The notes under the pieces were generated by a model. It was not told the DNA's origin and searched no databases. It saw only the letters and a program-made list of their open reading frames with translations. 64,000 bases of DNA, taken from contig CM102288.1 in NCBI GenBank assembly GCA_046563655.1, forward strand, positions 5,456,001-5,520,000, read 5' to 3'. This document shows positions 30,236 to 59,011 of the stretch, one piece after another. Made by a program: the position numbers and the translations under genes. Every line of letters begins with the position of its first letter. Position 1 is the stretch's first letter. This stretch comes from Yuukianura sp. NJ FZ-2021 (lineage: Eukaryota).

Positions 30236-31983
30236 TTAAATTTGAATTCTGGTAAGTGTTATGCGGAGTTCACGAAATGATTTCGTCGTAAATCGACTTT
30301 CGTTTCGTTCGGAAGCGTTTTTAGTTTGTGGTTTCTGCAGAAGAGTTTTATTTTTATGAGCTTGGCTTGCCAAATGACTCCTTAAACCGCTCGAAGTTTT
30401 ATAATCTGCTTGACACAGTGTGCAAACGTTAGGTCGTTCTCCAGTATGAACTCGCATGTGGTCGGTGAGTTCTGTTTGGTTCAAGAATTTCTTTTCACAC
30501 CACTTGCAGTTGTACAGTTTTTGTCCTCGGTGGCGATTCATGTGTTCCGAATAAGTCTGTCTGTGAGAAAATGCTTTTCCACAAGTTGAACACTGAAAGG
30601 CTGACGTAGTTCGCATATGGGCGACAGCCCATCCGTTCGATTTGTCTGAAAATTTGCACAGTTGATGTCGAGGTCAATATGATCAACTTTTGTTCAGGGT
30701 CCAGATGGGGCATCAAGCGGTTTGACCTCCAGGGGTCACCAAAGGTCATGGAGGTCATCCTATGACTACACCCCACAAGTTAGGTGTCGTTGAAAAGCTG
30801 TGGATCTGCTGATTCCAAAAATATACGGGTATCCATACTTTGGTTCAACCGCTTAGCCGATATAGGTCAAGAAAGGTCATGTTTTCCGTTGGAGTTGTGC
30901 AAGTTATTTAAATGAGATATTTCTTGACCCATATCCGTTACGTGGTTGAACCAAGGTATGGATACCCATATATTTTTGGAATCAGCAGATCCACAGCTTT
31001 CCAACGACACCTAACTTGTGGGAAGTAGTCACAGGATGACCCCCATGACCTTTGGTGACCCCTGGAGAGTCAAAACCGCTTGATGCCCCATCTGGACTCT
31101 GAACAAAAGTTGCTCATATTGACCTCGAGATCAACTGTACAAATTTTCAGACAAATCGAACGGATGGGCTGTCGCCCATAAGCGAACTACGTCGGCCTTT
31201 GTTGAGCCAGTCCTCGTGCGTTTTTAAGTGAGCTAGGCGATTTCCTATGATTGACTTGTGACAGAATTTGCATATGATTGGTTTTCCAAGTCCGTGTGTA
31301 TGGCGCATGTGCTTTTCCAGATCCAGATTTCGAACGAACGTTTTGGGGCACGCTGTACATTTCCTGTTTTTCTGTGCTCCATGACACTCCATATGAGCTG
31401 AAAGTTGTTCCTTCCGCCGGCCTACGTAGGGACAAATGGAGCACTTGAATTCCATAACGCCGTCGTGAATTTTTTGGTGCTGTTTTAAGCCGATCGCTCG
31501 AACAAATTTTTTTGGACATACTGTACACTGGAATGGTTTGTTCCCAGTATGCCGCCGATTCATATGCTCAGCAAGCGCAGTAGCAGAAGCTGACGCGTAT
31601 TTGCAGACGTCGCACATGTATTTGCTTTTTCTGGTGTGTGTAATGAGATGTCTTTCTAAATTGACCTTCCTTGGAAACTCCTTTTCACAATATTCGCATT
31701 TTTCCAGGCCCTTGCCGGTGTGCATACGGAAGTGAGTGACCAAATTTTGTTTTTGAGTAAACGTTTTGGGACAAACTGTACATTTGTAAGGTTTGATCTT
31801 CAAGTGGCTTGCGGAATGAATCATCATGGCTTTACTGGTTGCGTACTTAAATCCACACGTTGAGCACTGGAAAGGCTTGGTGTCAAAGTGTACATGTATA
31901 GAATGTTTAAGGTAGCTATGAGCACCCGAAAAACTCTTGCAGCAAACGCTGCATCCAAATACAGTTTTCAGCGGTTTCGTCAT
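30236..31983 (-). CDS. C2H2 zinc-finger protein (12 fingers), interrupted after finger 9 by a 599-bp insertion; this allele is predicted truncated
   Basis: ORF 31147-32037 has 9 CxxC...HxxxH fingers with TGxKP-like linkers; ORF 30236-30616 has 3 more. Removing 30599-31197 fuses them in frame (...HEDWLNK^FQCSTCGKAF...). Likely start ATG 31983 after a 5' intron (~31997-32080, GTAAGT...TTTCAG). Confidence 0.88.
30599..31197. mobile_element. Palindromic (foldback) non-autonomous DNA transposon, Spy-like, copy 1 (599 bp)
   Basis: Two ~275-bp inverted arms (30599-~30874 and ~30920-31197) around a ~45-bp loop; termini GGCTGACGTAGTTCGC...GCGAACTACGTCGGCC; flanked by AAA and TTT without TSD. Confidence 0.88.
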
Positions 31984-33065
31984 TTCCGGTTTGTTTCTGA
32001 AATAAATAGATAGTTTTAAAGCGCTTTTTATAATCATTAAACCATTAAAAGTAGAATTAAAGTTAAGATTTTAAACTTACCAGTTAATAATGTCACCTTA
32101 AACTCAAATAAAAGCGAATTTTTACGAATTTACAATTGGTTGAGTTTAAGAAATTTTTTAACCTTTTCTGCTGACACTAACGCTTTATGTTGTGCTACTA
32201 CACAATTGAGTCGACTAAATTCTGGTGTGTTTGGTTAAGCCTCAACTTCAAATGCACAAATGAATTTCATATTTTTGAATAAATGCAAGGGTTGCCCATA
32301 TTTTGTGTGGAAATTTTATGAATAGGAGAAAGGATATGCCCACAGGCAAAGTATTTTTAAAAAGTCAGAAACAAAGCACAGGAATTAAAATACTTTTTGT
32401 GTTTTTATCAACTGTTTCTGAAGTTTGGTAAAAATGAGCCTAGAAAAGCTTCAATTCATTTGAAAACTCAACAGAAGTATATTTCTTTGTTCATAAATTA
32501 AGTTTTCAAAAACAACTTTTTTAAAAAATTGAAGTATATTATACAAAAAAGTATGAACTTATTTAGAAACTGAATTGAAGTGAAATATAACGGGAGGAAT
32601 ATAATAAATTTATTTTGCACAACTAATTGCTTGAGGTATTTTTACCTGGTTTTTTATTAAAATTTGAAATTATATCCGAACTTTATTGTAAGAAATTTGA
32701 GGATTTGTAGCAAACTTTGGGACACTTTTCGCTTATGAAGTTTTAATTTGCTGAATTTGACATTTGCAATTTCATAGGCCGTGGTCTTGTCATAAAATAA
32801 ACAAAAAACTAAGCGGCAGAATTTAAAAAATAGCTGTTCTTGCTCATCGCACGACGAAAAAGTGTTTACACAAAGGTTTATTTGCTCTTTACAATATCAA
32901 TACAGTTTTAAAATCAATTTTTGAAAAAATGAAACAACCCCTAAGGATTTTCGGACAAAGTTTTTAGTTGAAGTTTTGCGCGGGTTGCTACCAAACAAAA
33001 CTTTGCGTTAAGGAATTCAGAAATTTTCATCAGCACCAACATTCAAAGTTTAACTGTGATAAACC

Positions 33066-35555
33066 ATGTCTCGTTTTCTTTTTTTCGCAAAAATTTTTAT
33101 TTTCTTCGCATCAGATAGATTAAAAGAATCAACAGTTTCAGCGGAGCAAGTTATTATAGCGGAACCACCCACCGGGGAGAAATCAGTAACTCCAGAAGCT
33201 TCAAAAACTGCTTTCCAAATTGTGAATCTGCATCAACTGATAAACCAGTTTCCACACAGTGACAATTTGATAGTAGCAGAAAATCATCAATTCCAAATCA
33301 CTTCAAGTTTTGCTGTGCCTATACAGTTGTATTACGCTTGCTTTAAAAATGGAACTGATGACCCTGCTATGGACGACCTTTACATGAGAAGTCACATACG
33401 TGGTTACACATGGTTAAGTCATGGTTACAAACTAAACTTTATTCAAGTTTTCCTTGTACTGCCCACGGAGACTAGTTTGGCACACAAACTGTTTCGTGGT
33501 ACTTTTGTTTTCGACGGTAACAACAGTTTGTTCAGCCGCCAGTTTAGTGGAGTAGATTCATTTCATATTATTGATTTGAAGTATTCCGACGATATTAAAA
33601 ACTTGTTAGTGAACCGCTTTCCAGATGCATTAATACTTTATCATCGCCTAAAATTGCATTCTAAATTCATTAAGAATAGTGACAATTACCTAATTTCACA
33701 AATATTTTTGTACTGCGAGATAAGAGTATGGGGGAAGTTCCAAATATTTGAAACGTGGTGGGGTAAGTGGAACGAAATGAACACGACGCAAGCGCTGTCT
33801 TTCAAAAACTTTCGACAATTGAGCGCAACAGTTGAAATAGAAGGAAGAAATGCTCTTTTCTTTCCTGAACAAAATATAACCGAAGGAAAAATAGCAGTTG
33901 ATAAAATTTTGAATCCGTTTAAAGTAAATGAACTTATACCTAAGTGGTATGATTTCCATCACTATGTTGGATTACTTTTACATTACAAACAGGGAACGTT
34001 CGTTTCGATGGACAAAACCAAATTCCTACAAGAAATACATTCATTGGAACAAGGGTATGGTGTGTATTTAAAGCTTCAGCATCCAATGAAAGATATTTTT
34101 GAATTTCTCCCAATTGCGTATAAGGCTATAAATTTCTTAACTTGTGATGGAACAAGTGACACCCTGACTTTTGAAATTTATAGAAAGCCATACGATGCAT
34201 GGTCTTGGGGTGCAATATTAGCAACAGGAATTTTGTTAATATGTTATGCTACATTGGCTGTATGTCGGCAATCATACAAAACGTCTTTACATCTCGTTTG
34301 CTTGGACTTTCTATTTGTGTTTTACGGAAGTCTGGTTGAAATATTTCGTGAAACACAATACAATATTGGCCGAAATCGCAAAATACCTGTGATTACCTTG
34401 TGGATGTTGATGAGTGTAATTCTGACAAACGGATACAAGGGAGTGGTCGTATCGTATTTAACAATGGGAAGACCAATTTGGCAAAAATATGAAAAGTTCA
34501 AGCAGTTAGAGGGCTTTGTTGTATTAGCCAATCCAAAATATTCGTGCAGATACATCTACGACATTGTTCATTTTCACAATTCCTATGTCGAATTTCATTC
34601 AGTAGAGCTTAAGGCACTTTTCTATTGCGAATGCGAGTGTGCCTCCTATGAACGTTCAAAACATCCCAAACCAAAAACTTACTTTCATTCTTTTCCAGTT
34701 GGTATTTCCGATAATACTGGTCTCAGAGGAATAGTAGATTACACCAAATCAAGAGACCTACACTGTCGTGAGTGCGGTAGCGTCAAAATTGTTAATGCGT
34801 ATTGTCATGACAACTACGTATACGTTAACCAAACTCAACAAATTACTAGCCTACGGCTTCCTGGCAAAGACGACTTGACTGTAAGGCGTAAATTCCCATC
34901 CTCGTTTATACTTGCTGAACTCCGAGTGTTGAAGATGCCCATACTCTTTCTACCCAGACATGTACAACAAACGCTATATGAAATTCTGTCTCTTTGTTCC
35001 AAATTGGCGCTTCTGGCACCAGAGGAAGATTTAGATATATTTTTAGCACAATACCAAAAACACCATGCACGTTTAAACTCTAATGGAGATAAAGAAGTAA
35101 TCTTCCGTAAAGGGACGGAACCTCTTGGCACATTTGTTCTAGGGTACGAACTAGTTGCTAAGCATCAATACGAACGATTGCATCAACTGATGCAGTCTGG
35201 AATTTATCGTATGTGGGAAAAATGGTTTCCGATCACTAAACCTAATGCAATAGACAAAATTATGAATGAGCACGAAAAAACTGAATCACTGAACCAAAGC
35301 CCCAAAAAACTAAAGTTGACAGGAAACATTGTATCATGTTTTTATATGATTCTGTGTTGTTTAGGTATGTGTACTTTAGTACTACTTTACGAAGTAAGAC
35401 TGCTAATTTTTAGTTGTTTGACTCAACTAATAACTATGTTAAAAATTGCCATTCTACGTTACGTCACAATTAGGAAACTTAAAACATTTAAGTTTCCTTG
35501 TTTTCGTCATAAAACTACACAAATGTTTACAGCAAGACAACGCCGCCAGGAATAG
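33066..35555 (+). CDS. Divergent ionotropic receptor (IR, variant iGluR chemoreceptor), intronless, 829 aa
   Basis: Long single ORF; hydrophobic N-terminus; NFLTCDG..TFEIYRKPYDAWSW before TM1, WMLMSVILTNGYKG (M3-like), LMQSGIYRMW and a C-terminal TM, the layout typical of divergent arthropod IRs. Confidence 0.8.
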   Translation: MSRFLFFAKIFIFFASDRLKESTVSAEQVIIAEPPTGEKSVTPEASKTAFQIVNLHQLINQFPHSDNLIVAENHQFQITSSFAVPIQLYYACFKNGTDDPAMDDLYMRSHIRGYTWLSHGYKLNFIQVFLVLPTETSLAHKLFRGTFVFDGNNSLFSRQFSGVDSFHIIDLKYSDDIKNLLVNRFPDALILYHRLKLHSKFIKNSDNYLISQIFLYCEIRVWGKFQIFETWWGKWNEMNTTQALSFKNFRQLSATVEIEGRNALFFPEQNITEGKIAVDKILNPFKVNELIPKWYDFHHYVGLLLHYKQGTFVSMDKTKFLQEIHSLEQGYGVYLKLQHPMKDIFEFLPIAYKAINFLTCDGTSDTLTFEIYRKPYDAWSWGAILATGILLICYATLAVCRQSYKTSLHLVCLDFLFVFYGSLVEIFRETQYNIGRNRKIPVITLWMLMSVILTNGYKGVVVSYLTMGRPIWQKYEKFKQLEGFVVLANPKYSCRYIYDIVHFHNSYVEFHSVELKALFYCECECASYERSKHPKPKTYFHSFPVGISDNTGLRGIVDYTKSRDLHCRECGSVKIVNAYCHDNYVYVNQTQQITSLRLPGKDDLTVRRKFPSSFILAELRVLKMPILFLPRHVQQTLYEILSLCSKLALLAPEEDLDIFLAQYQKHHARLNSNGDKEVIFRKGTEPLGTFVLGYELVAKHQYERLHQLMQSGIYRMWEKWFPITKPNAIDKIMNEHEKTESLNQSPKKLKLTGNIVSCFYMILCCLGMCTLVLLYEVRLLIFSCLTQLITMLKIAILRYVTIRKLKTFKFPCFRHKTTQMFTARQRRQE

Positions 35556-38294
35556 AAGTGAACAGCACACTTGTAAGTTCTAGAAGAATTAATCATGGCA
35601 TTTCACAACTCCAATTTGTTTTCGATTTGCTGGATGAATATAAGCAGAATTTTTGTTTGAAATAATAATGAAAACTCTCTTGTATGTTTTAATACAAAGA
35701 ACTGTGATTCTTCTGAAAATTATAAGAACGATTTCCTGGTGGCATTTTTTTCAGAAAGTAAAGAGAAGATTCAAAAAAAGAAAATTCATAAAATATTTCA
35801 ACTAGCATTATTTTGTATTGTTTTTTTTTACTCCAAATTTGTTAATATTAGCAGTTTTGAATTTTCTGCAGAGATCTTTCTGTTTTCGTACTTAATTTAA
35901 CGCGTTAATTAATGCTAATAGTAGTCGACATTTCCTGTAGAATAAAGTTACCAAAGTTAAAACTACACAAGAGGACAGAGTGCTTTAAAATACAAGACTT
36001 GTTTCATGAGATTCATGTTTGATACCGTGATTCATGTTTGTTTTTGAAAATTTTAGGTGTGAGCTAAAATTTAGAAATTGGCGGTTGAAAATTTTTGAAA
36101 TGGGGAATATAACTGTGCTTTAAATAAGTTCTGGATGATTGTAAAGCCCGTGGTTTAGAAGCATTACTCGAAATTTTATTTTTCACGTTCTTTCCCAAAA
36201 GGTGTAATATCGAATTCCAAAATTTAAAATTTAAATACACATATTGACGCAGAAACAATAAGTATAGTGTTTGCATAATTGCAAACCAATCTGACTAAAT
36301 TTCAGCACAAACTTCTTAAAACTTGGAAAATTCCTCAGCATATTCTTTTTACTTATGTATTGACGTGAAGTAAAGAAAATTAAAAGTAAAATTGTACGAA
36401 GTAAAGTAAAAATACTCCGTCTGTTTAAAAGACAATCATTTTGAACCTGTTGAATCTGGTTGCTCATAAAATTTTATTGACGCTATTGGGTTAGACTAAG
36501 CTCATGGTTAAGACTAAAGCGTGCTTAAGCTTAAGTTAAGTTCAATGTACGGTTTAGTTAATACGGTCGTGCGTTCGCGCTAACAACTTTAAATTCCCAT
36601 AGTAACGATGGGTCCTATCTGTCTTTTCGATTCCCACAACCTACGAGTGAAACAGCTTTGCCAAGACTAAAATTTCAAAAGTCAAATTTTTTAGAAAAGG
36701 TTAAGTGAAGTTTGTGTTGATAACAAAATAACTATCAATTACCCGTTGTTTTTGAGACACTGTGGAGTACTTCTGCCAATAATTCGTGCAATCCAGAACT
36801 TTGTGCTTTCAATTTCATTAAACTCAAATTCGCTAGATGTTCCTCGTTCATCTATATGAGACACAATGTTCCTGGGATTGGATGCTGGAATCAACGTAGA
36901 AAGCCAAGTTTCTGTACCAAAAAAAATACTGTCAGTAACAATTCTTACTTGCAAAATACATTTCCAAATTAAATTTTCAACTTTTTTTCACGGTCCAGTG
37001 AAACGGTGCAGAACCCTCTGAGTATTTCTGCAGTGTAACGTCGCTCAACTTTTTGGACGAGAGCGAACCTTCTACGTACAACGAAAATTCCTTTAAAAAA
37101 AGGGGAAAAAACCAAATTGAAATTCAAAACAAAAATCAAAAATTCATATATTTTTCAAAATCTGACTGACCTCATTGTTTTTTCTTTTAATTGCGCTGGA
37201 AATGATGTACGTCCCATCAGGGATGGGGGATTCTTGAGGTTGCACAAGCGGCAAAAAGTTGCTCAAGAATAACGACAAAAACTAATGCAGTCATTTTTAG
37301 TTTTTGCAAAGCGAAAGATCGGAATCTTTTTCTTGTTTTTTTTTTCAGAACAAGTATAGTTGAAAATATTTGTATTCCTTCTGCCAGCTCAACTGCTGCT
37401 GCATATTTTATACCTTTTGACCACACCTTTGTTAACCGCTTACATTTTTTAACGAATCACTTTTACTTAGCTTCTCGCTTTAGCGGAAACACACCCTAGG
37501 TAAAGATAACGAAGTTACTGGAATTTCTGCAGGAAAACGACGAGAATTCTTTACTTTTCAAAAAGTATTTGACTCGAATTAAAACTAGCCGCACAAGCCA
37601 AAAAAAAAAAAAACTCTTTCAAAGTGCAGAATTTCGTTTTCAAAGGTTAGATTTTTTTGTTTTAGCGGAAACACTTACCACTAAAGATTACTAAGTTTAC
37701 CGGAATTTATTCAGGAAAACGCAAGATAATGCATTCATGGCTCAAAGTTTCGCAATTCTTGGAGCTTTGCATCAAGTAATTGGCAAAATTTAAAAAAAAA
37801 TCCACACAAGCAAAGAAGAAAAAAGAATTTCTTTCCAAGGTTTTTAGAACTCGGTTTTTTCACGCTTGACCCCAATTTGTATTAACACTCAATGCTGACA
37901 TACGAAACCTATGTTTGGTCGTGGGCTTAATATTTTTTGAGACAAATTCTTATAATGTGATGCCAATTTCGAGGCCAGGTCAAAGTCAAGCTAAGTCCCG
38001 TGATATCGTCATGGAATGGCCATTCCCAGGCAATAGTCTAAGCCTTTCGAACTGTGCGCAAAATATTAATGTAATTGATTGTAAGATATGCTCTTTATGT
38101 AAAATGCTAGGAAAAATGTTAATGTAAATATTTACAAAGTCGGAAAAAACCCAAGATTCGACTTTCGGGAGTTCAGTGTAAATACCGTGGGCGAGAATGA
38201 GAATCGCCTCATGCTAAAAGTTTACAAAACGTCTTCATAAAAAGCTTTTATGTTTCTGTGTTAAACTTTACTTTAGTGCAAAGACAATTTCAAA

Positions 38295-41121
38295 ATGAGG
38301 TTTACTATAAAATTGGCATTTTTCCTACCACTCTTTTCCATGTATTTTACTTTTTTCTTTGACAAACGAGAGCTAATGGTGGAAAATTTAAATAAACACT
38401 TGAATCTTTTCAACGATTGTAGAGTCCATCTCTATTTTGACACCAAAATTGTTGGTTTAGAGGAACCTTCAATTCCTGTCTACATTGGGAACGTACTTGC
38501 GATTCCCGCTCCAACAAGTCTTGACAATTTTTTCACATATGACACCCTGCAAAATTGGCACAAAGAGGTGTATCTAAACACCTCCGATTCTAAGTCACGC
38601 TTTTGTGTCATCTATTTCTTTATTCATTACACAATGAATGATGCTGGATTTACTGTCTCACATGAATTTCCGCCCAGTGGGTTTCTATTTTTTCCTGAAG
38701 CAACAGTTCTCTTTGTTGTTTTTCGTGTTTTGTGGGTACAAGAGCCACTTATCTACATTAGAGGAACCTTCAATTCCTGTCTACATTGGGAACGTACTTG
38801 CGATTCCCGCTCCAACAAGTCTTGACAATTTTTTCACATATGAAACTCTTCAAAATTGGCACAAAGAGGTGTATCTAAACACCTCCGATTCTAAGTCACG
38901 CTTTTGTGTAATCTATTTCTTTATTCATTACACAATGAATGTTGCTGGATTTACTGTCTCACATGAATTTCCGCCCGGAGGATTTCTATTTTTTCCTGGA
39001 GCAACAGTTCTCTTTGTTGTTTTTCGTGTTTTGTGGCTACAAGAACCAATTATCTACACTAGAAACTTTATACAAAACTATGAAATTCCTGTTGCAGTTT
39101 TGTCGCTGGAGGAGAAGTATTTCGGTCGCGAATCGACTCATCGGCGTTACTTTTTTGTAAACAGAATTTCCCTTGCTCCATTTCTGCACAGGAGAGACGA
39201 TGTGTTTTCAATCCCTTTGGTTTGCAGATTTGCGCTAAATAAGCAGGATTGCATACTAGGCAAAACGAGCCTCCTTCGCATTACGCTGTACCGAAACAGT
39301 CAACAAAAGTTCATAAGGCTAGGGATAGATAATAAGCGCTGTGGTTCAAGCGACATTAACATTACTGATGCACTTGTGACTAAATTTTTTGGTGTTCCGA
39401 AAACGATGGTGAGGAATACATTTTGGTTGCGTTATGACTCGCTTAAGTTAGACACAGCACGACCAGTTCCTAATCCTGGTAATGAACCTTCTGTACTCAA
39501 CATCCATTTTCTGGATGTCAATGTTTTGTTTCACTTAATTCCTGCCACAAATAGCTGTTTTACAGTTATAAACGCCGATACATTGCATGAGCCACCCAAA
39601 ACAAACCACTATTTCTTATTACGTACGTATAACCTACTCTTTGATGACGTTGGGAAAGTATTAGGAATTGAGAGAAAAGAAGGACGATTGAACATTCCGG
39701 CGTTTTGGCAAGTGGCGGTGGTAGACACGGATATAAAGAATGTGTTGTTCGCAACTTGCGATGGTGTTAATACTTCATTGACGTTTGAAATCTACTTCAA
39801 TCCATTTGACATATATAGCTGGATGTACATTCTTTTCTCGACTATTGTCCTAATTCCTGCGTCGCTGGCCTTGATGTCACTATCTAAACAGATTTCGACA
39901 CAATCCGTGGCTGTATTTGCAAAATACGTCGAATCTGCACTGCTTATATTATTGGACGTAAGTTCGTGCATTAGTGACAAGGTTCTGGACAAGCTCCAAC
40001 TAAAATTTTACCATCGAATAGTGTTTGGGACATGGTTGATACTGTGCATTGTGTTGGTGAATGCATATAAAGGACTCTTTACGTCTCAAATGTCAGGTCC
40101 ACTGAAACCGCATCATAAATACACAAAACCAACAGACCTCGGAGGCTTTCTTATATCTGGAGAAGGTAGGCTCCATTGGGAAGAACACGCGCAAAGTATT
40201 AAGAACAAAACTATGCTTTATGTTAACCCTGTTTACTGCGACTGTTTGGATCTTGGCATCGACGTAGGCCCACAAAGAGGGCTAGACGAGTGTAATGCTT
40301 TGCGAAAAGTTAGAGCTGATTTGGACTACCTCCGTTCCAAATATGTCACAAACACAACAGCAACAGAAGCCTTCTGTCGCCTTATTCCATCGAGCGCTGC
40401 AGATGATTATTGGTCAATTTTTCAAATAGGCGGATCCGGCTCAAGTGGTAAGCTGAATTGCAGCAGAGATGGTTGCAAACCAGTGTTCGTGAGTAGGTCA
40501 TTTCGTAGAATACCTAAGACTAAGTATATAGAGGGGTTTACGCGCAACCTTGCGGAATGTGACAGGCTTGCAGTTATGGATTACACAAAGCGGGTCTACA
40601 CTGCTGTAAATTATGCAGTTGCAGAATCTCACTACAGTAAGTCAGTTCCAATTCAGTTTACCATAGGAAAAGAATCAGTCGCTACTGCATGGGAGGGGTA
40701 CGCGCTTTACCGCCCGTATCCAAATCTTAGACTTGTTCAGTGCAGGATGCTACGAAGATTACAACGTCTGGTGGAAAGTGGCTTTGAAACGTTTTGGCGT
40801 GAATGGTTTGAGCGTATAATGCTGGCAACAACCAGATTGGATGCTACAGGAACCTCTACAAGAGTTCAGAAGTTACCGAAAAAGATGACACTGGAAACAA
40901 ACATTGTGTCCAGTGGTGTCGTCTGGGCTGTTGGAGTTGTAGCTGCCATGATGTTGTTAGTTGGTGAGAAATGCTCAGCCATAGACTACCGTTTACTTTG
41001 GATAGAGTTTAAGTTGTACTGTCGGCGTCATGCCTATCGGTTCAGCCGACAAAACATCCAGGCGTTTTTGAGGCGACAAGTCGTGAAAACTTCTCAATAC
41101 TTATTGACACTTTTAGAATAA
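38295..41121 (+). pseudogene. Divergent ionotropic receptor, frameshifted by a 301-bp internal tandem duplication (841 aa if one copy is removed)
   Basis: ORF 38295-38825 gives the N-terminus (paralogous to 41693); ORF 38638-41121 gives the rest (FATCDG..TFEIYFNPFD, WLILCIVLVNAYKG, LVESGF). The frames are offset by the duplication 38457-38757/38758-39058. Confidence 0.75.
38457..39058 (+). repeat. Tandem duplication, 2 x 301 bp, ~96% identical
   Basis: Both copies begin TTAGAGGAACCTTCAATTCC and end ATCTACA; 12 substitutions counted by eye. Confidence 0.95.
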
Positions 41122-41692
41122 TTCTATCTGCAGTAACTTAAATAATTTTAACGAATATTTAGAACCTCCATTTAGCGCAAAGGGACGAGCAAAATATTTA
41201 AACATTTGAATTTCAGAGGCATACACCAACTGGGATCCCATTAATTGTAACATTCAGCCGTTTAAAGTAAAGTGGCAAACCTCACTTAAGCAACTTTACT
41301 TCAATTTAATCAATCTAAAACTTAATATTTTTTTCAGACAACGATATAGTGGGGTGTCTGGTTTAAGGTCATGTCAAAGGCAAGTTAGGTCTTGTGATAT
41401 CGTGTAAAGCGTCATGAAATGAGCATTTTCGAGCATGTCAATGTGTCTTAGCCTTTTCGAATTATGCAATAAATATGCATGAAATTGAACAAAAGGAAAA
41501 GCTCTTTATGTAAAATATTGGGGAAAATATTAAATATTTACAAGGCCCGAAGAAACCCAACAGTCGACTTTTGGGACTTCAATGTAAATACCGTGCACGG
41601 GAATTGCCTCTTACTAAGTTTACAAAACGTTTTCATAAAAAGTGTTTAGTCTGTTTGTTAAACTTTGCTTTTAGAGCAAAAACAATTTCAGA

Positions 41693-44545
41693 ATGAGTTT
41701 AGTTATAAAGTTGGCATTTTTTCTACCATGCTTTCCCATTTATTTTGCCTTTTTCTTTGACAAACAAGAGTTAATGGTGGAAAATTTAAATCAACCATTG
41801 AATCTTTTCAACGATTGTAGAGTCCATCTGTATTTTGACGCCAACAACGTTGGTTTAGAGGAACCTTCCATTCCTGTCTACATTGGCAACATACCTTCGA
41901 CTCCCAGTCTATCAACTCTTGACAATTTTTTCACGCCTGAAACGCTACAAAATTGGCACAACGAGTCGTACCTAAACATATCCGATTCTACGTCACAGTT
42001 TTGTGTCATCTATTTCTTTATTCATTACAAAATGAATTTGGCTGGATTTACTGTCACATATCAACTCGAGGATGATGAATTCATATTTTTTCCTGGCGCA
42101 ACAGTTTCCTTTGTTGTTTTGCGTGATCCGGATGTAGAAGAGCCACTTAGCAACAACATTGTCTTTACCGTAAACGACGAAATTCCTGTTGCAGTTTTGT
42201 CACTTCATGAGAACTATTTCGGTCAAAAAGCAGCTCATCGACGTTATTTTGCTGTAACCAAAATTTCCACTGGTGAATTTCTGCAAAAAAGAGACGATGT
42301 GTTTCCAATCCCTTTGGTTTGTAGATTGGCCAGAAATAAGGAGAAATGCATTCCAAGTAAGCGGAGTCTCCTACGCATTACTCTATATAAAAACAGAAAA
42401 AAAAAGTTCATAGGGTTTGGGATAAATGGGAAGCGATGTGGCAAAAGCGACGTTAAAATTACGGACAAACTTGTTGCTAACTTTTTTGGCGCCCCGGAAA
42501 CAATGGTGGACAATACATTTCGGTTGTATCATGCTGCTAAAAACCCACCTCATCATCTCCGTGTTATTGATGTCCTTCTCCTATTTCATTTGATTCCGGC
42601 CACAAACAGCTGTTTTACAGTCATCAATGCTAACAGATTGCCAGAACCAACAGAAAATGATTCCTCCCCGCTTATGGATAGCCTACAATTTGACAGTATT
42701 GGAGAAGTATTAGGAATTGCCAGAAAAACAGGATTTGTACCCCACGACTCGCCGTGGCACAAGATGGTCGTACAAACGGAAATGAACGCTGTGCTATTTG
42801 CAACTTGTGATGGTGTGGAAACTGCATTGACTTTTCAAATCTATTTCGATCCATTTGACCTGAATAGCTGGATGTACATTATTTTTTCTGTGATTGTTTT
42901 AATTCCTTGTGCAATGGGCGCTATTTCATTATTAAAACGACTTGAAACACAACACGGGATACTTTTTGTAAGGTACGTCGTGTCTACATTGTTTATATTC
43001 ATTGAAATCAGTGTCGACATAAGTGACAAGGTTCTAGAAAAACTTCACCTAAAGCACTACCATCGAATAGTGTTTGGGTCATGGCTGTTGCTGTCCATTG
43101 TGTTGGTGAATGCATACAAAGGACTGTTTACATCTCAAATGTCTGGACCACTCCAACCGTACCATAAATACAGAAAACCTGCAGACCTTGGACACTTTCT
43201 AATATTTGGAGCTGGGTCAGGACTATGGCATGAAGTCGCGCAAAATAACATGAACAAAACTGCACTGTACATTAACCCCGTGCACTGCGACTGTTTGGAC
43301 CTTGACATTCATCGGGAGCTCGAAATAGCGGAGGAAGACCAAGGTTTGTAAACAAGAAGCTAATTTTTTCTTCTACAGGTTAGGCAATATGTGGCTTTTT
43401 TTTTATTGCCTCTCCCAAAATTGCAAAATTGAAAAGAGAATCACGGTAAGTCTCGTTCCCTCAGCAGTTTTTAGAAACCAAATTATTTTCATTCTTTTTG
43501 AAAGTTCCGTTTGGTGTAAACCAAGGTTGCTATAGCGACCATTTCTGAAATGTCGTAAGAGGTTATGTCATGACTTAGATCTTTAAAAAAAAAAACACGA
43601 AAACAACAACTTTTGGACCAATTTTATTTTCACAACAATATTTTCAAAAATTTTAATTTTCACCTTGCTGCTGATTCTTAGTTTTGATTTCCAATATTGC
43701 CTAACCTGTTAAAGAAATTCTATTTTGTTGCTATAGGAACCTTGGTGGAGGACTGTGATGCTTTGAAAAGAGTTAGAGCTGACTTGGACTACCTCCGTGC
43801 CAAATTCCACTCTGACACAACAGTAACGGAAGCTTTATGTCGCCAGCTTCCAACAAACTTAGCCACTGACTATTGGTCCATTTTTCAACTAGGTGGGTCC
43901 AGTTCAAACGGGAAACTGAATTGCAGCAGTGATGATTGCAAACCAGTGTTTACAAGCATCTTATTTCATAATGCCATGGATACGGAAGCTATAATTTCCA
44001 AGTTCGCTGAATGTGATAAGATTGCAGTAATGGATTACACAGATCAGGTTCACTACGCTGTAAACAAATTAGTTGCTGATTCGCTGCATAACAAGTCAGT
44101 TCCCACTCACTTTACCATAGGCGAAGAACCAGTGGCTTCTGCATCAGAGGGGTATGTGTTTGACCGCCCTTTGCCAAAGCTTAGACACGTTCAGTGGAGG
44201 ATGGTACGAAGATTGCAAGCACTCGTGGAAAATGGAGTTCAATCGTTTTTGCATGGCTGGTGTCAGGGTATAATGGATGGAAAACATAAATTGGAAATTC
44301 AAGAAAAAGCGGCAAAGGTTCTGGAGTTACCGAAACAGACGACATTGGGGTCAAACATTGTGTCTAGTGGGATTGTATGGGCTGTTGGAATTGTAGCTGC
44401 AATTATGGTTTTAGCTGGTGAAAAATGCTCTGTCATAGGTTACCGTGTAATTTGCACGGAGTTTCAGTGGTACTGTCGGCATTATGCTTACAGTTTTAGC
44501 CGAAAAAACATCAAGGCGTTCTTGAAGAGACAAAAGGTCCCTTGA
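41693..44545 (+). CDS. Divergent ionotropic receptor, two exons (41693-43343, 43737-44545), ~819 aa
   Basis: Close paralogue of 38295-41121 along its length; a phase-1 intron CAAG|GTTTGT...CTATAG|GAACC joins the two ORFs in frame (EDQGTLVEDCDALKRVRADLDYLR). Confidence 0.82.
43376..43708. mobile_element. MITE (333 bp) inside the IR intron, possibly Tc1/mariner-pogo type
   Basis: Perfect 15-bp TIR CAGGTTAGGCAATAT / ATATTGCCTAACCTG; left flank TA, right flank TT (imperfect TA TSD). Confidence 0.7.
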
Positions 44546-45046
44546 TAACCGAAATATAACAACAAATTGTATTTCCTACAATAGGTTGCCCAATAACACA
44601 CTGTTTCCAAAAATCTTAGTTCAGACAAATTTCTAACATCAATTCTGCACCAATCCCATTTACATTACATGCAAAAAAAATAGCATAGAAAGGCAGATTT
44701 TTTTTTAAATCCACTTACTAGTAAAGATGTTGGCGGCAACTGAAACTTCTCTTGAATTGTGTGCCCGAAGAATTTATTCGGTTGTTACACAATACTTTGC
44801 ACTGCAGTAAAATATAATATATGATGTGAAAGTGAATCAGGATGGAATGTATATTATTGGAAAATTGTGTTTTAAATATAACTATTATGCTGAACACCTA
44901 AAACGCACTATGACATTGTTAAGACTACTAAGGTATTCCTAGTTAACTACAATTAAATTTATGGTAAAAATTGAACTGTTAACTTCATCTCATGTGTTGT
45001 GTAACAAGTTGTGACTTTTGAATTTCATAATCATTCAGATCCGAAT

Positions 45047-48000
45047 TCAGACTTTAATGGTTTCCTGTAGCCATTCACGGTAGTGAGAAACTTTTACGTA
45101 TACTCCAGGCACCTGAAATCAAAAATTAACAAATTTAAAAATTCAAAAAATTCAAATTTTTGTGATTTTTTTAGTTTTTTAGTATTGCTTATTGACCTCT
45201 CGGTGTCCACATCCCACTCCCCAGCTAACAATTCCCGCCAACACAAATGTACCTTGAACGTTGCACACCAAAGGGCCTGCAAGTTATCAATCACAAAACT
45301 TGTTAAAAAAAGGAGTTTAGGTTTTACTTTTAGTTTTTCTTTTTTTAAATTAATTACCTCCGCCATCTCCCTTACAGGCATCCCTCCCTTCTTCTCCGCC
45401 CGCGCACAAAAATCCGGAGTGTAAAACGAAATCAGGGCCTAGCCTAGTTCGCTTCAGTTTTTGTTCGCAATCAAAATGGCGCAGAACAGGAACATCCACT
45501 TCCTTCAAAATGTTTTGGTACTTGCCCTATAATTAAATATTATAAATTGAAAATAAGTTTTATTGATTTAAATTAAAAAAAGTTATTTGACCTTGTCTCC
45601 CCATGCATCTTTTCCCCATCCTGTGACCAGACACCTTTGACCTCCAAGCTCCACATTTGTCGGAGGGAGACACACTGGACTTATGTGTGGGCTACAAGAA
45701 AAACACAATGTTAGGCTAAACTTAATAAAAATAGAATATGCTTAGCTAATCAATTTTTGTCAAACTTATATTTTCTGAAATTATTTTCTGTCTGAAATCT
45801 GAAATTATTATTTCTAAAAAAAACCTCACTTTTGACGAAAGTCCACCGCACCTTCGAGCCTCATCACTGCAATGTCCTGAAAAATATAGAGAATTAGTGT
45901 ACTTGCGCAGGCGCTAACACGTTTGAATAATTAATTTAAAACTATAATCTTAAGACTAATTAATTAAAAATTCAGTAATTAGTTGACTATTTAAGTTAAG
46001 TTAGTTACGTTGAAGAGATTTCCTGCGTAAAAATCCGGATGCAATGCAAATCCAGCTACATCTCTCTCTACATGTGGATAGAATTCAGTTTCGTGATTGA
46101 CGTCCCATTCTCCTAGGCGAACACGCAGGTCATTTGGTTGGAGACCCTTGAGGCAATGTGCAGCAGTGACAACGTGACGCTCATCGATGACGGTCCTGTG
46201 TTAATTAATTAATAATTAAATTAATTATGATTAATTACAATTAAATTGGAATTTAGTGTAGTCTTACCCTCCACAAACATAGACATTGTCATAGCCATCT
46301 TTTTTCAGAATTGCCACTTGCCACGGCCACTCCCCTGTATGAAAAACAAAATTTTATATTATATTATAAAAAATATAAGTTACATAATAAATACTAAAGC
46401 ATACATGACAATTTTTACTAAAACTGTGAAGCCTCACAAGGTTAAATCTGTCACAAATTTTACAACCATGGTCCAACTGACCTCAGACATGCCATTGCCT
46501 CTGTTTAGTTATTAACATTATACAGGCGTTGACTAAATATTTTTGACATCCCTGATTATAAGGCAAGAAGATACAGGCAGTAGAAACGGGAATACAGGAA
46601 ACGAGTGCTTATAGCGTTTTGTTAACCTCAGAGGCCAAGGTCAAAAAGTCAATTCGAAGTTTTTAAAATTCTTTTCTAAGAAATTAGTCAGGAAAATTAC
46701 TAAAGTTGCGCCAATAAAAGTTTTTGATTCACCGTTTCTTAAAGGGAACAATTAACTTTTGGAGAATGCAAACATTTTGTGGTTCAGCGTCTTTGATTGC
46801 TTTCTTGAGAATAGTTAAACCTTGAACAATGCAAAAAGTTAATGATTCAGCGTCTAAGCAGGGACAATCAAATGTTCCTCAGAGGTCGATGTAAAGGCAT
46901 TTGGCTATTTCAGTCTGCAGTTTGTCTTTGCTCTATCTGCACTCAGCGTCCACTTACACCACTAAATACTATTTTACATTTTCAGAAATGAAAGGTTAGT
47001 AATACACTAATCTAGTCCGAGTTTGAGCATTTTGTGAGTTTTTGTTTTGTTAATTTTTAGCACAATGGACTTGCGGTAGTTCGTGTGAACTAAATACATC
47101 GCAGATAGCTCAACGTTAGATTAGAACCGAGCACTACTTTCTACAATCTTAAACACAGCTTCGCACGGCTACGACAGTCACGGTAAGTATTTACTCAGAT
47201 TCTGTTTTGGTCAGCATCATTTTTTGCTGAAACTGCGCATGCGCGGCGAATTATGTTGTTCTGAGAAACAATTCATATCAGTGTATCACTTTAGTAAAAA
47301 AAAACTGTTCTTCGAAACTTCAAGGTGAAGTTAAAGTAAAAACAGTAGATCCTCTCAAATAACAACGGCTGAAAGCCTATGTTCGTGAGAAAGTTTGAAA
47401 ATATTTAAATATCAGTTGCTTACCGTAGTCTGACTCTCCTTCAGTTGCTGGATTAGGATTTGTGACTCTGCCGGTAATGCCCCTCGCGTTCCTCTGGCCG
47501 CATTGACCCGGCACAAAACTGTTAATCGAATTGATTAACGAATTGGTCGGTTGTTTTTGTTGAGAGCTTGGCCTGATCGGTCTTCTGCAACAAACATAGC
47601 CATTGGGGCAAGCTCCACCCAAATTCAGTTGTCTCTAGAGAAAAAAAAAATCAGAGAATTCCGCGTTTTAGTCACATATCTTACGCTTTAATTTTGTGTG
47701 CTATCTAGTACTAATTTATTAGTGGATCTTGTTTTGAATATTTATAAGTCAGATATATAATGTCATCCATTCACTCTTGTCATGTCAACGATGCAAGTAA
47801 GGTCAAGTCAGACTGTCGGCCGAAGCAAAGTCAGGTCAATGTTATCGGACGAGTGAAGTTCCAGTATTATAATTATCTGTCGCTGACCTGTTTCTGGGCA
47901 GCGGTGGTTTGACTTAAAACTCGAGCAAAGTCTGGACTTGACCTCACTTGGCGCCTTGACCTTGACCTCTCTTTAGCTTCATCCGGAAAGTTCACTCTGC

Positions 48001-51000
48001 CTTTATTCTGTTTCACTGCGAAGGTCAACCGACCTCCGTTTGACGTCGGAGCGTCAGGCCCCGTAGCGCTGATCGGAAGCCGCGTTTCGACGTTTCCGGT
48101 AGGCAGAACTCTCCGTTCAAAATATTTTTCTCCCGCATTTTTTTCGTAATTGTCGGATCGAGCTTCATCCTGAAGCGGGAACAGCGTTCGACCTCTTCTG
48201 ATGTTGTTAGACTGTGAAGAGTCTTGATTTGAGTCATAGTTGATGTTCAGTTCGTCTAGTTCTTCTTTAGTTATTTGACCATCGGCCAAAAGTTCCTGGA
48301 TGAGAGCACTGTCCTCATTGGTCAGTTCTCCTTCTCCTCGATTTTGATTGGTCAATTCCCCTCCTGCGTCAATCACAGGCGCGAATTTCTCTCTGTCGTC
48401 AAAAACAGTTGCGGAGTTGAACTTATCTGCGTATTCGTCACTCCCCGAATTAGTGGAGCCAGGAATTTTAAATACGCTTCTGTCACCATCAAATTGAGAA
48501 TTTGCAAACACATTTGACGCTCCGGCGTCGCGTTGATACTGATTTGATGTTAGTGAAGCGTAATTTGGTGATAGTCCAGTTTTCTGAGCTGCTCTGTAAC
48601 CACCAAATCCGCCAATGGCTGCAGCCGAAGAGTAGCCATGAGCATAGCCACCAGTTGCGTACGCTTGCGCATATGCATCACTTCCGTAGCCACCTCCGTA
48701 GCCATGCGCATAGGCATCACTGCCATAGCCATAAGAGTATTTCCCGCCATTGTAGCTTGGACTCCACCCCTTCGAGTGATAATGCTGCCCTGTGATTGGA
48801 TAAGAGCTGGAAGGCCACCCCCAGCCGTAGCTGATTGGATACTGATGGTGGTAGTGCTCGTGCTGATGGACCAATGGGAGCACTGGAACCGGAACGGGAA
48901 CTGGGACGGGTGCTGGATATGGATGGTGGACATGATGTGTTCCAAGTCCAAATTTGTGAGCCTTGGCGGCCTTCTTTTGATGAAAGAGGCCCTTAATTCC
49001 ATAAATGAGACTTGGATTCGGTGTGATATGGAGGTTCACAAGGGGTTTGAACACTTTCGTCTTGTCCTTGTCTTTTGTCTTCTGGAAGGACACTAACGGG
49101 TTAATTGAAATCGGACCAAGGTCAATTCCTCCGCCATTGTACGGGTTGACAGCAGGGTCGGTTCCAAAGGGGTTCAAAGGGTACCCGCCGCCTGCTTGAG
49201 GGTACCCACCCGGGAGGCCGAAAGAAACTCCCCAAGTAGGTTCAAAACCCAGTAGTCTTCCCAAAACTCGCTAGAAACAGAAATTCAAACCTTTTTGACA
49301 TTTGGCGGGAAATTTTGTTTTGAATTTAAAGGTCCCGGTATTTCCCGGGTACTTACGAGACGATGGCCTTCCATCTTGACTAGCTGAGATGAGTCTTCAC
49401 CGAAGTCGTATCCTGCGAACCTAGTTAAATTCCGGATCATAGGATCTTGAAGCAGAGATGAAATGAATCTTCCTTGAGTTTGACCTGCGACCTTTGGCTA
49501 TTATGAAGCAACATCAGGTTACACAAATTTCAAAAAAAAAATTTGAATCGCTCACATTCACTCAGTACAGTATTTCATAGTGTATTGGATTCAGTGGATT
49601 AGAAGATGCCTACAGGCACTGTGAATGGAACCGACGCCATTCAATCGAAAACATATTTTCAAATTTTTGAATTTTTTCACAGTTTTCAAAAATTCATTTC
49701 TTTTTCTTTTGAAATTTTTGAGATGGAAAGGGCGACGCAGTTCGCTTATGGAACATGCGCCATCCGTGCGATTTGGCTGAAATTTTGCAGAGTTGTTCTT
49801 TAGGTCATTACCACTTACTTTTGTACAGGGGTCAACTCGGTGCATCGAACGGTTTGACCTCCAGAGGTCACGAAAGGTCAACGTACGTTTTATTAACGAT
49901 CCCATGCACATAATACATCGCTGGAAAGACATTTTTACGCTGATTCAGAATATATATAGGTATCAATACTTTGGTTCAACCATATGACCTCCAGAGGTCA
50001 TCAAACATTTCTGTTCAAAATTTTAGACGATTTTGAATGTTTGATGACCTCTGGAGGTCATATGGTTGAACCAAAGTATTGATACCTATATATATTCTGA
50101 ATCAGCGTAAAAATGTCTTTCCAGCGATGTATTATGTGAATGGGGTGGTTCATAAAACGTACGTTGACCTTTCGTGACCTCTGGAGGTCAAACCGTTCGA
50201 TGCACCGAGTTGACCCCTGTACAAAAGTAAGTTGTAATGACCTAAAGAACAACTCTGCAAAATTTCAGCCAAATCGCACGGATGGCGTGAGTCCCATAAG
50301 CGAACTGCGTCGCCCTTTGTTTTTGATCTTATGAGTATGACGTATTCTATCATAGTCGTCTTTTCCTAAAAAGTGTTGTTTGTTTTCGATAAAATGTCGG
50401 GAAAACATATTTAGTCTTAAATTTTTTAAAAAAAAAAGTGTCGTACCGATTCGGCTAGCGCAGGCTCTGAAGATGTGACAGCTTTTGGTTCTTCGCGTTT
50501 GCGTCGTTGAGTTCTTGGTTCTCTGACGGCAGCGTAATCGCGACGCCGAGAGTCAGTTGCGTTTGACTCAATTTCAAACTGTGAGTGTTTGTGACGTGGA
50601 TCAATGTTGTAGCCAACAAGTCCAGAGTTGGGAGTGCCCGTGCCTTGGGTGACTTCTCTTCCAGAGGAACCCTGCTGCACAATGTCAAAGGAAGCGCATT
50701 GGTTGATGGGAACGCAGAAACAGTCGTTTTGGAGCGAAGAGCGGAAGTCAAGGTCATTAATCTTCCGCTGCGGAAATGAGCCAATGGAGGCTCCTCCCGG
50801 AGTGGCTAAACTTATTGCTGGCTTCTGTGCAGCTCCGTATTCGTCAAACCCTCCTGCATAGCCTCCACTGCTTCCAATTACACCATACGTTCCTATTCCT
50901 GGAAATTTGTTCGAAAATAATTAGTTCAAAATAGAATTCCTCAGAACAATTGGTTCAAAAGTAAACTAGGGTAATATGCATGTGTAAAAAAAATTGGTTC

Positions 51001-56400: not shown

Positions 56401-57657
56401 CCTTCAAATTTTATTTAAAAAATCCAAAATGACATGCGTATATCTGATGGAAGTTCAGTTAGCCAAACATGGAAAATTTTGTATAGTTGATAAATTACCT
56501 GAACCGTAACGGTTTGTACTAGATCTGCACAGCATGTTATAATTCTTCCTATCTCTTGCACGTTGTGAGTGATAGAATATAACAGAAGAACCGTTACCCA
56601 CAACATCAGCATCGGCTTCATGACACGCAACCCAGCAGTTGAAGTAATTTCCGGAAACGACAGCACGGTGAGGCACCTTGACAGAAATGAACGGGTTCGA
56701 ACGGAACGAACCAACGGGACAGACATTGATCTATAAGAGACTATTATAATGGGTAGTGAACTGTTTAACGTAATGCAGTTGAGCTTTCAGTTGGGTAGGA
56801 GGTCACAAGGCGGGCTAATGGCGATCATGGAAAAGTTAACGCATCTACTAATTAGCGTAACTAAAATGACGTCACCACTACACCCTCATCTCTGTTCTAA
56901 ACTTAATCTAACCATTTTTAACATCTTTACGCACAATACTATTTCTAACAGTAGTTATACGAGCAACTAACATGTTATTAGAATTCGAATCGAACTCCCC
57001 CTCCATGGGCTTTGTGCCCGCAGGGAGGGTAACATATAAATATAAAAAAATACTAATTAGCGCAGAAATTGTTAAGTTACCTAAGGTTCTTGGACGAAAT
57101 GAGAGCTAAAGGTACGACGAGTGAGACAATTGATGTTATCATCATTCTTCACAAGCTGCCGATGTAATTGTACGCGCTGAGGTTACTAAATGCCAACAGC
57201 CAAGTTTTTGCCAATATATACGTATACAATGCACAAGGCCGGATTTGTCCTACCCTTTCTTGGCTTTGCCAGTCATTGGAAGTGCACTTTGTGTAGGTTT
57301 TTTGCAAACATATACGATATGTAGGTAATGGACAACCTGGGGTGGATTTGTTTGTTTACGAACCTTGGATTATCTGCTCAAGTCGTTTTTTCCGAAATTC
57401 CGACAAAAAAAATACAAAGGCGTTTATTGCTTTACCTATCCAGGAAAAACTATTTTCCTATTTACCAAGCGTGACTAACCATGATAATCCAGTTTAGTCA
57501 CTGTTTAGCGAAGGTGAATACCTTTACTTTAGCTTCAAGCTTATACATATATGCGGCTTTCGCGACTTATGTTATAGTACCTGGTGTCAGTAATGGTAAT
57601 CGCAGGGGGTACCAAATAATTCCCGGAGTCATGCGTTGCAGGCAGCATGAGTGTGTT

Positions 57658-59011
57658 GAGGGTGAATCTGCCGATGGATGACAAAATCGAAGTCATCCAT
57701 AACGGTTGCGTTTTTATGCTGGATACTTTTAACACCTTATTATTGTACACATAGACCATATGCAGATAATACTCGTAGTCAATCCCTTTCTCACAATATA
57801 TTTCTTCTGCAGTAGGAATTGAGGTATAAAAAACCTTTACTTTGAAGAATGCTTTAAAGACTTACCTTGGTTTATGCTCCAGGGATGGAGTGTTAACTGT
57901 GTCCTCAAAAATTCGGTAGTCTTCGTTACTTAATGCTTCATTATCGAATTAACTGGCGGTGCTAGTAATTCCTTAGGTTTCGTTGTAAAAATGCCAACCC
58001 AGTCTCGTGCTGATCTATTGGCACCGACGAAGTTCATCGTCGCCAGTCAAAAGGTCTCTGCAAGGGGATCACTGTAAGATGACACTGTCAAAAAAATCCT
58101 CAACCTATGAGGACGGCAAGGTAGATAAGTTTACTTTTTTTTGATTCATTATTTTCCTGATCACCAGCAACTTAAATTGCAAAATTTAAAAAATGACAAT
58201 ATTTTACAAAAGTAGCTGGAACATGTTGTAATACACTATGCTTCAATTGTTAAATATATCACCTTCCGATGCACGCTTCTCACCACGTTGCATGGAAGAA
58301 GAAACCGGACCGTTTGTGCCACCAACCCTAGCGCCGGTGGTCTTTACAGTTCCCGCTTGATATGTGAGACTTAAAATTGACACCAAACCAAGTAGCCAAG
58401 CTGAAAATCGGTGATGGCAAATAGAAGGAATTATCTGTATGTTTAGTTGGAATATGCTTTCTCAATAGAGGAATTGAAATCGTAGGATTAAACTTAGAAC
58501 GCGCGTTTGCAGAGGGTGAATCTGCCGATGGATGACAAAATCTAAGTCATCCACAACGGTTGCGTTTTTATGCTGGATACTTTTAATACTTTCTTATTGC
58601 ACACATAGGCCATATGCAGATTATACTCGTAGTTAATCCCTTTTTCAAAATATATTTCTTCTGCAGTTGGAATTGATATATAGAAAACCTTTACGTTGAA
58701 AAATGCTTTAAAGACTTACCTTGGTTTATGCTCCAGGGGGGATTGTTGTCTGTGTCCTCAAAAATTCGGTAGTCTTCGTGACGTAATGCTTCATTATCGG
58801 ATTAACTGGCGGTGCTAGTAATTCCTTAGGTTTCATCGTAAAAATGCCAACCCAGTCTCGTGCTGGGGTATTGGCACTGACGAAGTTCATCGTCGCCAGT
58901 CAAAGGGTCTCTGCAGGGGGATCACTGTAAAGTGACACTGTCAAAAAAATCCTCAACCCAGGACGGCGGCAAGGTAGATCAAGTTTACTTTTTTTTATTC
59001 ATTATTTTCCT
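57658..59011. repeat. Direct repeat pair, ~500 bp each (57658-58158; 58512-59011), >90% identical, 353-bp spacer
   Basis: Both start GAGGGTGAATCTGCCGATGGATGACAAAATC and end TTCATTATTTTCCT. Confidence 0.93.

Follow-up and report, generated by a model that had tools for sequence, protein, structure and literature searches.

Two palindromic elements of Yuukianura sp. NJ FZ-2021 as probable members of a low-copy Spy transposon family with long terminal inverted repeats

Two almost wholly palindromic segments of about 600 bp, here called E1 and E2, lie in a stretch of 64,000 nucleotides from Yuukianura sp. NJ FZ-2021 (GCA_046563655.1, contig CM102288.1, positions 5,456,001 to 5,520,000; this whole stretch is referred to as the window). 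Both are bordered by AAA on the left and TTT on the right, and E1 interrupts a zinc-finger gene. The locus raises the question of whether such structures are mobile elements, to which group they would belong and whether the bordering bases are part of the element or of its target. Our answer is that E1 and E2 are very probably non-autonomous cut-and-paste DNA transposons of the Spy group (PHIS superfamily), which insert at AAA^TTT without a target-site duplication (TSD) and are related to two longer, transposase-bearing elements, A1 and A2.

The palindromic elements and their family

E1 (30599-31197, 599 bp) and E2 (49730-50315, 586 bp) have the same arrangement, AAA-GG...CC-TTT. The left arm of E1 (30599..30874, plus strand), a truncated Spy terminal inverted repeat (TIR) that has six GGTCA/TGACC motifs and is 78% identical to the outer 280 bp of the A1 TIR, is followed by a 45-bp loop (30875..30919) and by the right arm on the minus strand (30920..31197). 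E2 consists of a left arm (49730..50009, plus strand) with seven such motifs and 80-81% identity to the TIR of A2, a 26-bp loop (50010..50035) and a right arm (50036..50315, minus strand). The E1 loop is common to all five copies of the E1 subfamily and aligns weakly to deeper TIR sequence of A1; the E2 loop aligns in part to the continuation of the A2 TIR. The arms are 276-278 bp long and 92.8% alike in E1, where position 4 is T in the left arm and C in the other, and 280 bp long and 96.8% alike in E2. The predicted fold of E1 is a single hairpin (-302.7 kcal/mol, z = -54), and none of 100 shuffles was as good. When aligned with each other, E1 and E2 are colinear and identical in 422 of 611 columns (69%). 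The original prediction of two colinear elements made of inverted arms around short loops is thus borne out, and so is their membership in one family with shared ends. That they form a single lineage does not hold, given their limited identity and the different transposase-bearing partners with which they group in a tree of arms (see below).

The source genome (98.7 Mb, 22 contigs) was searched at the DNA level with each arm, which yielded 45 and 46 matches, with 40 candidates scored in each case, and with end patterns, which yielded 48 and 45 matches (reversed controls: 0 and 5). The family comprises at least 27 loci, 26 of them two-ended and one, on C1, with a single arm; the left end of the latter was left out of the end counts. 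Five copies are of the E1 type; they are 595-599 bp long, have unrelated flanks on four contigs and share the same asymmetric loop. E2 is the sole copy of its type, and copies of ~1.1 kb are the most numerous (n = 12); one of them is hosted by a unit of a satellite at C5:196.9-200.1 kb (L033/L060), every ~190-bp unit of which has one AAATTT. The remaining members measure 156, 780, 945, 1284 and 1548 bp, and the full size range is 156-3817 bp besides a 6.7-kb pair. The 156-bp miniature (C6:928042-928197; L070:543-698) has both ends and AAA/TTT flanks. The 6.7-kb stretch (C4:3445450-3452192; L115:451-7193) lies between mismatched ends from different subfamilies: on the left a long arm, on the right an end of 51 bp, each with its correct AAA or TTT flank. 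It has no open reading frame (ORF) of 150 codons inside and may be a composite unit or else consist of two partial copies.

High contig depth over E1 had suggested a larger hidden family; two further sequence patterns (27 and 45 matches) retrieved no family locus in the assembly beyond the known ones. Metagenome scans gave no match at first and then four, none of them AAA-flanked or alignable beyond the motif. In the literature we found no paper on this family, Repbase and Dfam lying outside the comparison, and none that joins a Spy transposon with Collembola. The picture that emerges is of a Spy family of low copy number with long TIRs; some members are derivatives that retain TIR alone, one transposase is apparently intact, and the family is to be added to those known for Spy.

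The insertion site

The bordering triplets lie at 30596..30598 (AAA) and 31198..31200 (TTT) for E1, corresponding on the gene strand to a TTT Phe codon and an AAA Lys codon, and at 49727..49729 (AAA) and 50316..50318 (TTT) for E2, all given for the plus strand. Throughout the family, AAA, read inward, flanks 52 of 53 ends, i.e., 51 of the 52 ends of two-ended copies and the single end on C1; as background, AAA precedes 69 of 1758 GG sites in the window. Outside AAA/TTT, 17 of the 26 two-ended copies have no direct repeat, seven have one of a single base, one has two bases and one has three, and duplications of four or more bases do not occur (0/26). Tabulating the flanks in a genome search with both copies, as had been proposed, thus gave AAA/TTT at nearly every end and no consistent TSD.

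Filled sites alone leave it undecided whether the six bases belong to the host or to the element, AAA/TTT being as invariant as the terminal GG (51 of 52 ends). The bases could be the element's own termini, and the target could then be a short TSD, such as the TTAA that is duplicated by Kolobok elements, the AT of ISL2EU or the TWA of Harbinger. It is the empty sites that separate these readings. At C5:197.5 kb the host is a satellite with ~190-bp units, and all ten neighboring units aligned across the junction read AAATTT; at C7:451 kb an IR-like paralogue from the window aligns across the junction without a gap. In the loci examined, such DNA-level empty sites were found for two of the 26 copies. 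Among eight close paralogues of the zinc-finger host of E1, seven cover the insertion site and all seven have the same 8-residue spacing from His to Cys; one zinc-finger paralogue reads AAC AAA TTC where the E1 host has AAC AAA TTT. At the junction in the host of A1, four of five listed paralogues are identical in length. For E2, no empty site of any kind was found. Because the paralogous empty sites keep exactly those six bases, or the two codons, we assign AAA and TTT to the host. With no common duplication outside them, and no Kolobok-type TTAA duplication in the family flanks, we consider it very improbable that they are part of the element. Insertion at AAA^TTT without a TSD, the core of the original prediction, is therefore supported by the ends as well as by unaltered empty sites in satellite and coding paralogues; the paralogous comparisons gave no sign of element-borne AAA/TTT with a real TSD.

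Two details of that prediction did not survive. Restoration of the zinc-finger frame upon excision had been taken to fix the boundaries of E1 independently. The frame alone cannot place the boundary, because removal of AAA and TTT as well, i.e., of six more bases, also keeps it; the empty site gives 8 residues from His to Cys, and the other fingers of the host have 7. The longer consensus GAAA^TTTGTT is matched only by E1 and E2 among 27 sites (one left end is misplaced). Compared with 892 background half-sites, the flanks have fewer A at -4/-5 and more T at -5 (p 0.005-0.04); an extended target preference was rejected, as no flank bias survives correction for 24 tests.

Contigs from three DNA runs of one sample, possibly the source of the assembly, were compared with positions 30350-50349. 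Among the 15 joints listed (of 33), none skips E1 or E2; none of the listed contigs bridges an element end by 31 bases, and depth over the zinc-finger gene is low.

Transposase-bearing relatives and the origin of the 600-bp form

A search for long elements with the same ends and a Spy-type transposase, suggested as a check, returned two, A1 (C3:5154318-5158134, 3817 bp) and A2 (C7:1593182-1596832, 3651 bp). A1 has 583-bp TIRs that are 99% alike and a single ORF of 807 amino acids (aa), counted from the first ATG; because TIRs and ORF fill 3671 of its 3817 bp, it has no room for a second gene. The ~390-bp TIRs of A2 are 97.7% alike, and its ORF, 80% identical to that of A1 in the core, runs for 749 codons and then suffers a frameshift before the C-terminal Cys/His block. 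Both proteins match Pfam DDE_Tnp_4 (A1, E 9e-17; A2, E 2e-14), and the Pfam scan of A1 gave no match to THAP. Compared by eye with the sequences in the supplement of PMC4122938, the motifs of Spy-1_CGi and Spy-3_HSa match those of A1 block by block. The highest identity between A1 and 125 database relatives, the named ones of which come from insects, bivalves and a springtail, is 46%; a Colletes gigas protein is 45% identical over 543 aa. The ends of A1 and A2 are 73-81% identical to those of E1 and E2. For Spy, a terminal consensus, GGANNNNG, has been described as relatively well conserved (PMC4122938), and the ends of the family have G at position 1 in 51, at position 2 in 50 and at position 8 in 51 of 52 cases. 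A GGA-ended Spy element at C4:10.84 Mb has inner TIR sequence in common with A1 (130 of 198 columns; alignment score 113, with 100 shuffles reaching at most 34). The predicted assignment to non-autonomous Spy elements is thus supported by the target, by the empty sites and by two elements that have the same ends and a transposase of Spy type.

Several observations weigh against this assignment or against the insertion mode on which it builds. Position 3 of the ends is never A (0/52), unlike in the published consensus; the published Spy_MOc and Spy_RPr (PMC4122938) likewise lack A there. The catalytic triad of A1, D82D48E, has a first spacing outside the 79-80 of the D(79-80)D(44-62)E given for Spy by Han et al. 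(2014, PMC4122938); Spy-1_CGi, which has the same motifs, shows a spacing of 82/48 by hand count of the supplementary sequence. The identity of E1 and E2 to the closest transposase-bearing elements is only 78-81%, so that their mobilization by the enzymes of A1 and A2 is an inference. One end of the 53 (C3:5.905 Mb) has neither the terminal GG nor TTT, and two of the 26 copies are bordered on each side by TTTAAA, which formally makes a 6-bp repeat, although as a palindrome it is expected from AT-rich flanks. One distant paralogue of the five listed for the A1 host is one residue shorter, and no allelic empty site turned up for E1 or for E2. A more radical objection is that the palindromes are assembly artefacts or local foldback inversions and not mobile copies at all. 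Perfect-looking hairpins can indeed come from assembly error, and no listed contig spans a whole element. Since, however, the arms of E1 and E2 differ by 3-7%, the five E1-type copies have the same asymmetric loop in unrelated flanks on four contigs, and the ends are common with transposase-bearing elements, we regard this as next to impossible and retain the assignment to Spy.

The genome holds about 15 Spy-like transposase loci in all, and three further Spy elements of 3.5-3.7 kb have AAA-GGA...TCC-TTT ends (L117:2904-6571, L122:2796-6417 and L123:2966-6432). In both A1 and A2, a GC-rich leader (~370 bp, ~130 codons) stands in frame ahead of the conserved transposase (C3:5157.0-5157.5 kb, L031:3250-3700, minus strand; C7:1593.7-1594.1 kb, L069:1045-1415, plus strand). 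The two leaders are 89% identical, compared with only 72-73% for transposase DNA and TIRs, and except for a 76-bp piece the leader was found nowhere else in the genome. Either exchange between the lineages or a conserved element may lie behind this.

How did the 600-bp form arise? A tree of 49 arms places E2 with A2 (support 100/100) and the E1 group as sister to A1 plus the 1.1-kb group. Because E1 and E2 have different partners, two lineages have each reached ~280 bp per end. E1 and E2 are separate lineages, which probably go back to central deletions that occurred independently in parents with long TIRs. Such a deletion, if its two breakpoints fell within the parental TIRs, would leave the outer ~280 bp of each end; E1 would derive from an A1-like and E2 from an A2-like lineage, neither direct parent being present in the assembly. 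The weak alignment of the loops to deeper TIR sequence is as expected from central deletions with unequal breakpoints in the two TIRs. The TIR of A1 contains an internal ~130-bp repeat that starts at about position 282 and may have favored a breakpoint at ~280 bp.

A transposase provided in trans would bind the conserved terminal 22 bp and probably also the repeated GGTCA motifs, excise the element and insert it at AAA^TTT through a blunt cut without stagger. The GGTCA/TGACC motifs, of which each 280-bp arm has 6-7 as against ~0.5 in base shuffles (at most 1 in 2000 reaches the count), are plausible candidates for transposase sites. The best-conserved block of the arms (window 30723-30748 and 49855-49880) has GGTCA half-sites in everted and direct orientation, four bases apart, an arrangement that we take to resemble nuclear-receptor response elements. 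That both lineages keep ~280 bp per end suggests a minimal working end. In cgSpy, which serves as a gene-transfer tool, 42-60% of the activity was left when one TIR was cut from 467 to 320 or 191 bp (PMC11304231). Blunt cleavage chemistry is a proposal of Han et al. (2014, PMC4122938).

The arms also bear traces of exchange within copies. The two arms of the same copy are mutual closest relatives in 18 of 24 copies, with one tie and five exceptions, and the A1 group (15 copies) has 38 copy-specific variants on both arms and 35 on one. At C4:9.22 Mb and C7:7.92 Mb, the copy combines sequence of two subfamilies in a mosaic that is mirrored on both arms. From shared copy-specific variants and mirrored mosaics we conclude that one arm was copied onto the other along lineages; repeated copying of this kind would occur by conversion or hairpin-templated repair, either during transposition or later. 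The E1 subfamily looks older or quieter in this respect, because it has fewer variants on both arms (13) than on one (32); for E1 itself the numbers are 0 and 12. The family is thus a clean, small example of arm-to-arm homogenization in a transposon without TSD.

Host genes and a splicing hypothesis for E1

The C2H2 zinc-finger gene that hosts E1 is encoded on the minus strand; its 5' part, with an uncertain start codon, extends over 31198..31983, and its 3' part (30236..30598) contributes three more fingers and the RIQI end common to paralogues, with no stop and no frameshift. When GG...CC is removed, a zinc-finger frame of 411 codons opens, which reads ...WLNKFQC... across the junction. The unspliced frame enters E1 for 18 codons and then stops, and most likely E1 truncates its host, cutting the protein short behind the ninth of twelve fingers. 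E2 probably lies in an intron of a minus-strand gene: a putative GT...AG intron (49498..50446, minus strand) can be drawn from the flanking ORFs. By a crude open-frame rule, 23 of the 26 copies are not in coding frames; a copy at C8:609 kb was rejected as exonic, sitting just inside a probable intron. The exonic host at C7:451 kb, an IR-like gene, is frameshifted and truncated. A1 interrupts the first coding exon of a membrane-protein gene that has several exons and is intact apart from this insertion (L031:28-518, L172). In Pfam, no family reached the cut-off for the A1 host, the IR-like ORF or the ORF next to E2; the labels 'IR-like' and '7TM-like' are our own presumption, to which Pfam lent no support. 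In the window, long intronless membrane-protein ORFs (33063-35555 and 38277-44545; 830 and 827 aa plus a broken tandem copy) are likewise presumed to be IR-like, the one tested having no Pfam match; a 301-bp tandem duplication at 38457-39057 disrupts the start of one of them. The window further contains an array of 11-bp tandem repeats (15413-16250) and a ~853-bp tandem duplication of ~90% identity (57651-59011).

Truncation is not the only conceivable fate of the zinc-finger gene. E1 could be a Spy insertion that supplies its own splice sites and is removed from the mRNA as an intron. The donor would be a GC or GT among the first 11 bases of one arm and the acceptor an AG two bases in from the end of the opposite arm, independently of phase. 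Candidate donors at +2, +8 and +11 of E1 would leave in-frame scars of 3, 9 and 12 bases and full-length frames of 412-415 codons, and the gene-strand end of E1 reads ...CAG-CC, the responsible base being absent there in the nine other arms of the subfamily. The zinc-finger frame has no other lesion; under simulated neutral change of 2.5%, the whole ORF and its 40 zinc ligands stayed intact in 2.5% of runs. All three exonic copies have AG-CC on the host sense strand; among the 23 others, about 8 do (post hoc Fisher test, p = 0.063). On the other hand, the donors AAG-GCCGAC and GAC-GTAGTT are judged poor against the usual consensus, and the acceptor lacks a pyrimidine tract, with a stronger out-of-frame TTTCAG 8 bases on. 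The base that creates the AG is a CpG-type C>T change and belongs to a set of 12 changes in E1 that are confined to one arm. Downstream of the insertion, the frame stayed intact in 38% of simulated runs, which is unremarkable, and the 2.5% divergence may be older than the insertion. Of the three exonic hosts, the IR-like one is broken anyway, the exonic calls themselves come from the crude rule, and a hairpin with a 280-bp stem in the pre-mRNA may block splicing or trigger silencing. We therefore consider splicing of E1 unlikely. Being palindromic and without target duplication, such an insertion would be spliced free of orientation and phase, and it is a doubtful proposition, again drawn from sequence, that the family is a latent introner of this kind, with E1 spliced from a still functional zinc-finger gene. 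Equally tentative is the idea that GGCT-type ends could supply donor and AG on either strand, with 1, 3 or 4 codons added to the reading frame. A spliced E1 would represent an intron born from a palindromic transposon without TSD. Among the top ten matches of a literature search, no paper paired 'introner' with 'Spy', the supplements of PMC12130899 lying outside that search.

Comparison with known systems

To introners derived from TIR DNA transposons (PMC12130899) the likeness holds for the splicing hypothesis only, in that splice-like dinucleotides in the ends would leave a short in-frame scar; the family differs in that most of its copies are not in coding frames by our rule and that one exonic host is a pseudogene. 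Galileo and other Foldback-like elements of Drosophila are similar in structure: in PMC2775673 and PMC3573991, two-TIR copies with long TIRs and chimeras are reported, recombination and conversion are proposed, and TIRs are >99% alike within a copy and ~7% apart between copies. Galileo, however, belongs to the P superfamily and has a 7-bp TSD, and we claim no relationship in sequence. ISL2EU/IS4EU elements share GG ends, a related DDE core and an AT-rich target; according to PMC4482050, ISL2EU duplicates AT at A-AT-T and has a second ORF for a YqaJ exonuclease and a THAP domain, whereas the family described here has no AT duplication, no room for a second ORF and no THAP match. The TWA duplication and Myb/SANT second ORF given for PIF/Harbinger in the same text were not found in the family flanks or in A1.

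The closest known systems are Spy elements, above all the long-TIR elements Spy-3_HSa, Spy_MOc, Spy_TUr and Spy_RPr (PMC4122938) and cgSpy (PMC11304231). With them the family shares the AAA^TTT target without TSD, the GG ends, G at position 8, long TIRs, a single DDE ORF in which the motifs agree, the C-terminal GWYC..C..GARTVGCCAH block among them, and a predominance of non-autonomous deletion copies. Spy TIRs range from 9 to 1,474 bp (PMC4122938), and Spy_RPr has 1,474-bp TIRs in 3,192 bp and another published copy spans 645 bp. TIR-dominated and long-TIR Spy copies are therefore already published, and being nearly all TIR is not new. The family differs in its GG(C/G) ends, which are never GGA, in the 6-7 GGTCA/TGACC motifs per 280 bp and the internal ~130-bp repeat of its TIRs, in its low copy number (at least 27 loci), in a transposase at most 46% identical to 125 relatives, and in the GC-rich leader of ~130 codons before the conserved transposase part; in the long Spy TIRs studied by Han et al. 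(PMC4122938), there was no sub-repeat structure. What this adds, at modest importance, is a Spy family whose ends are not GGA, whose TIRs have visible sub-repeats and in which one transposase looks intact.

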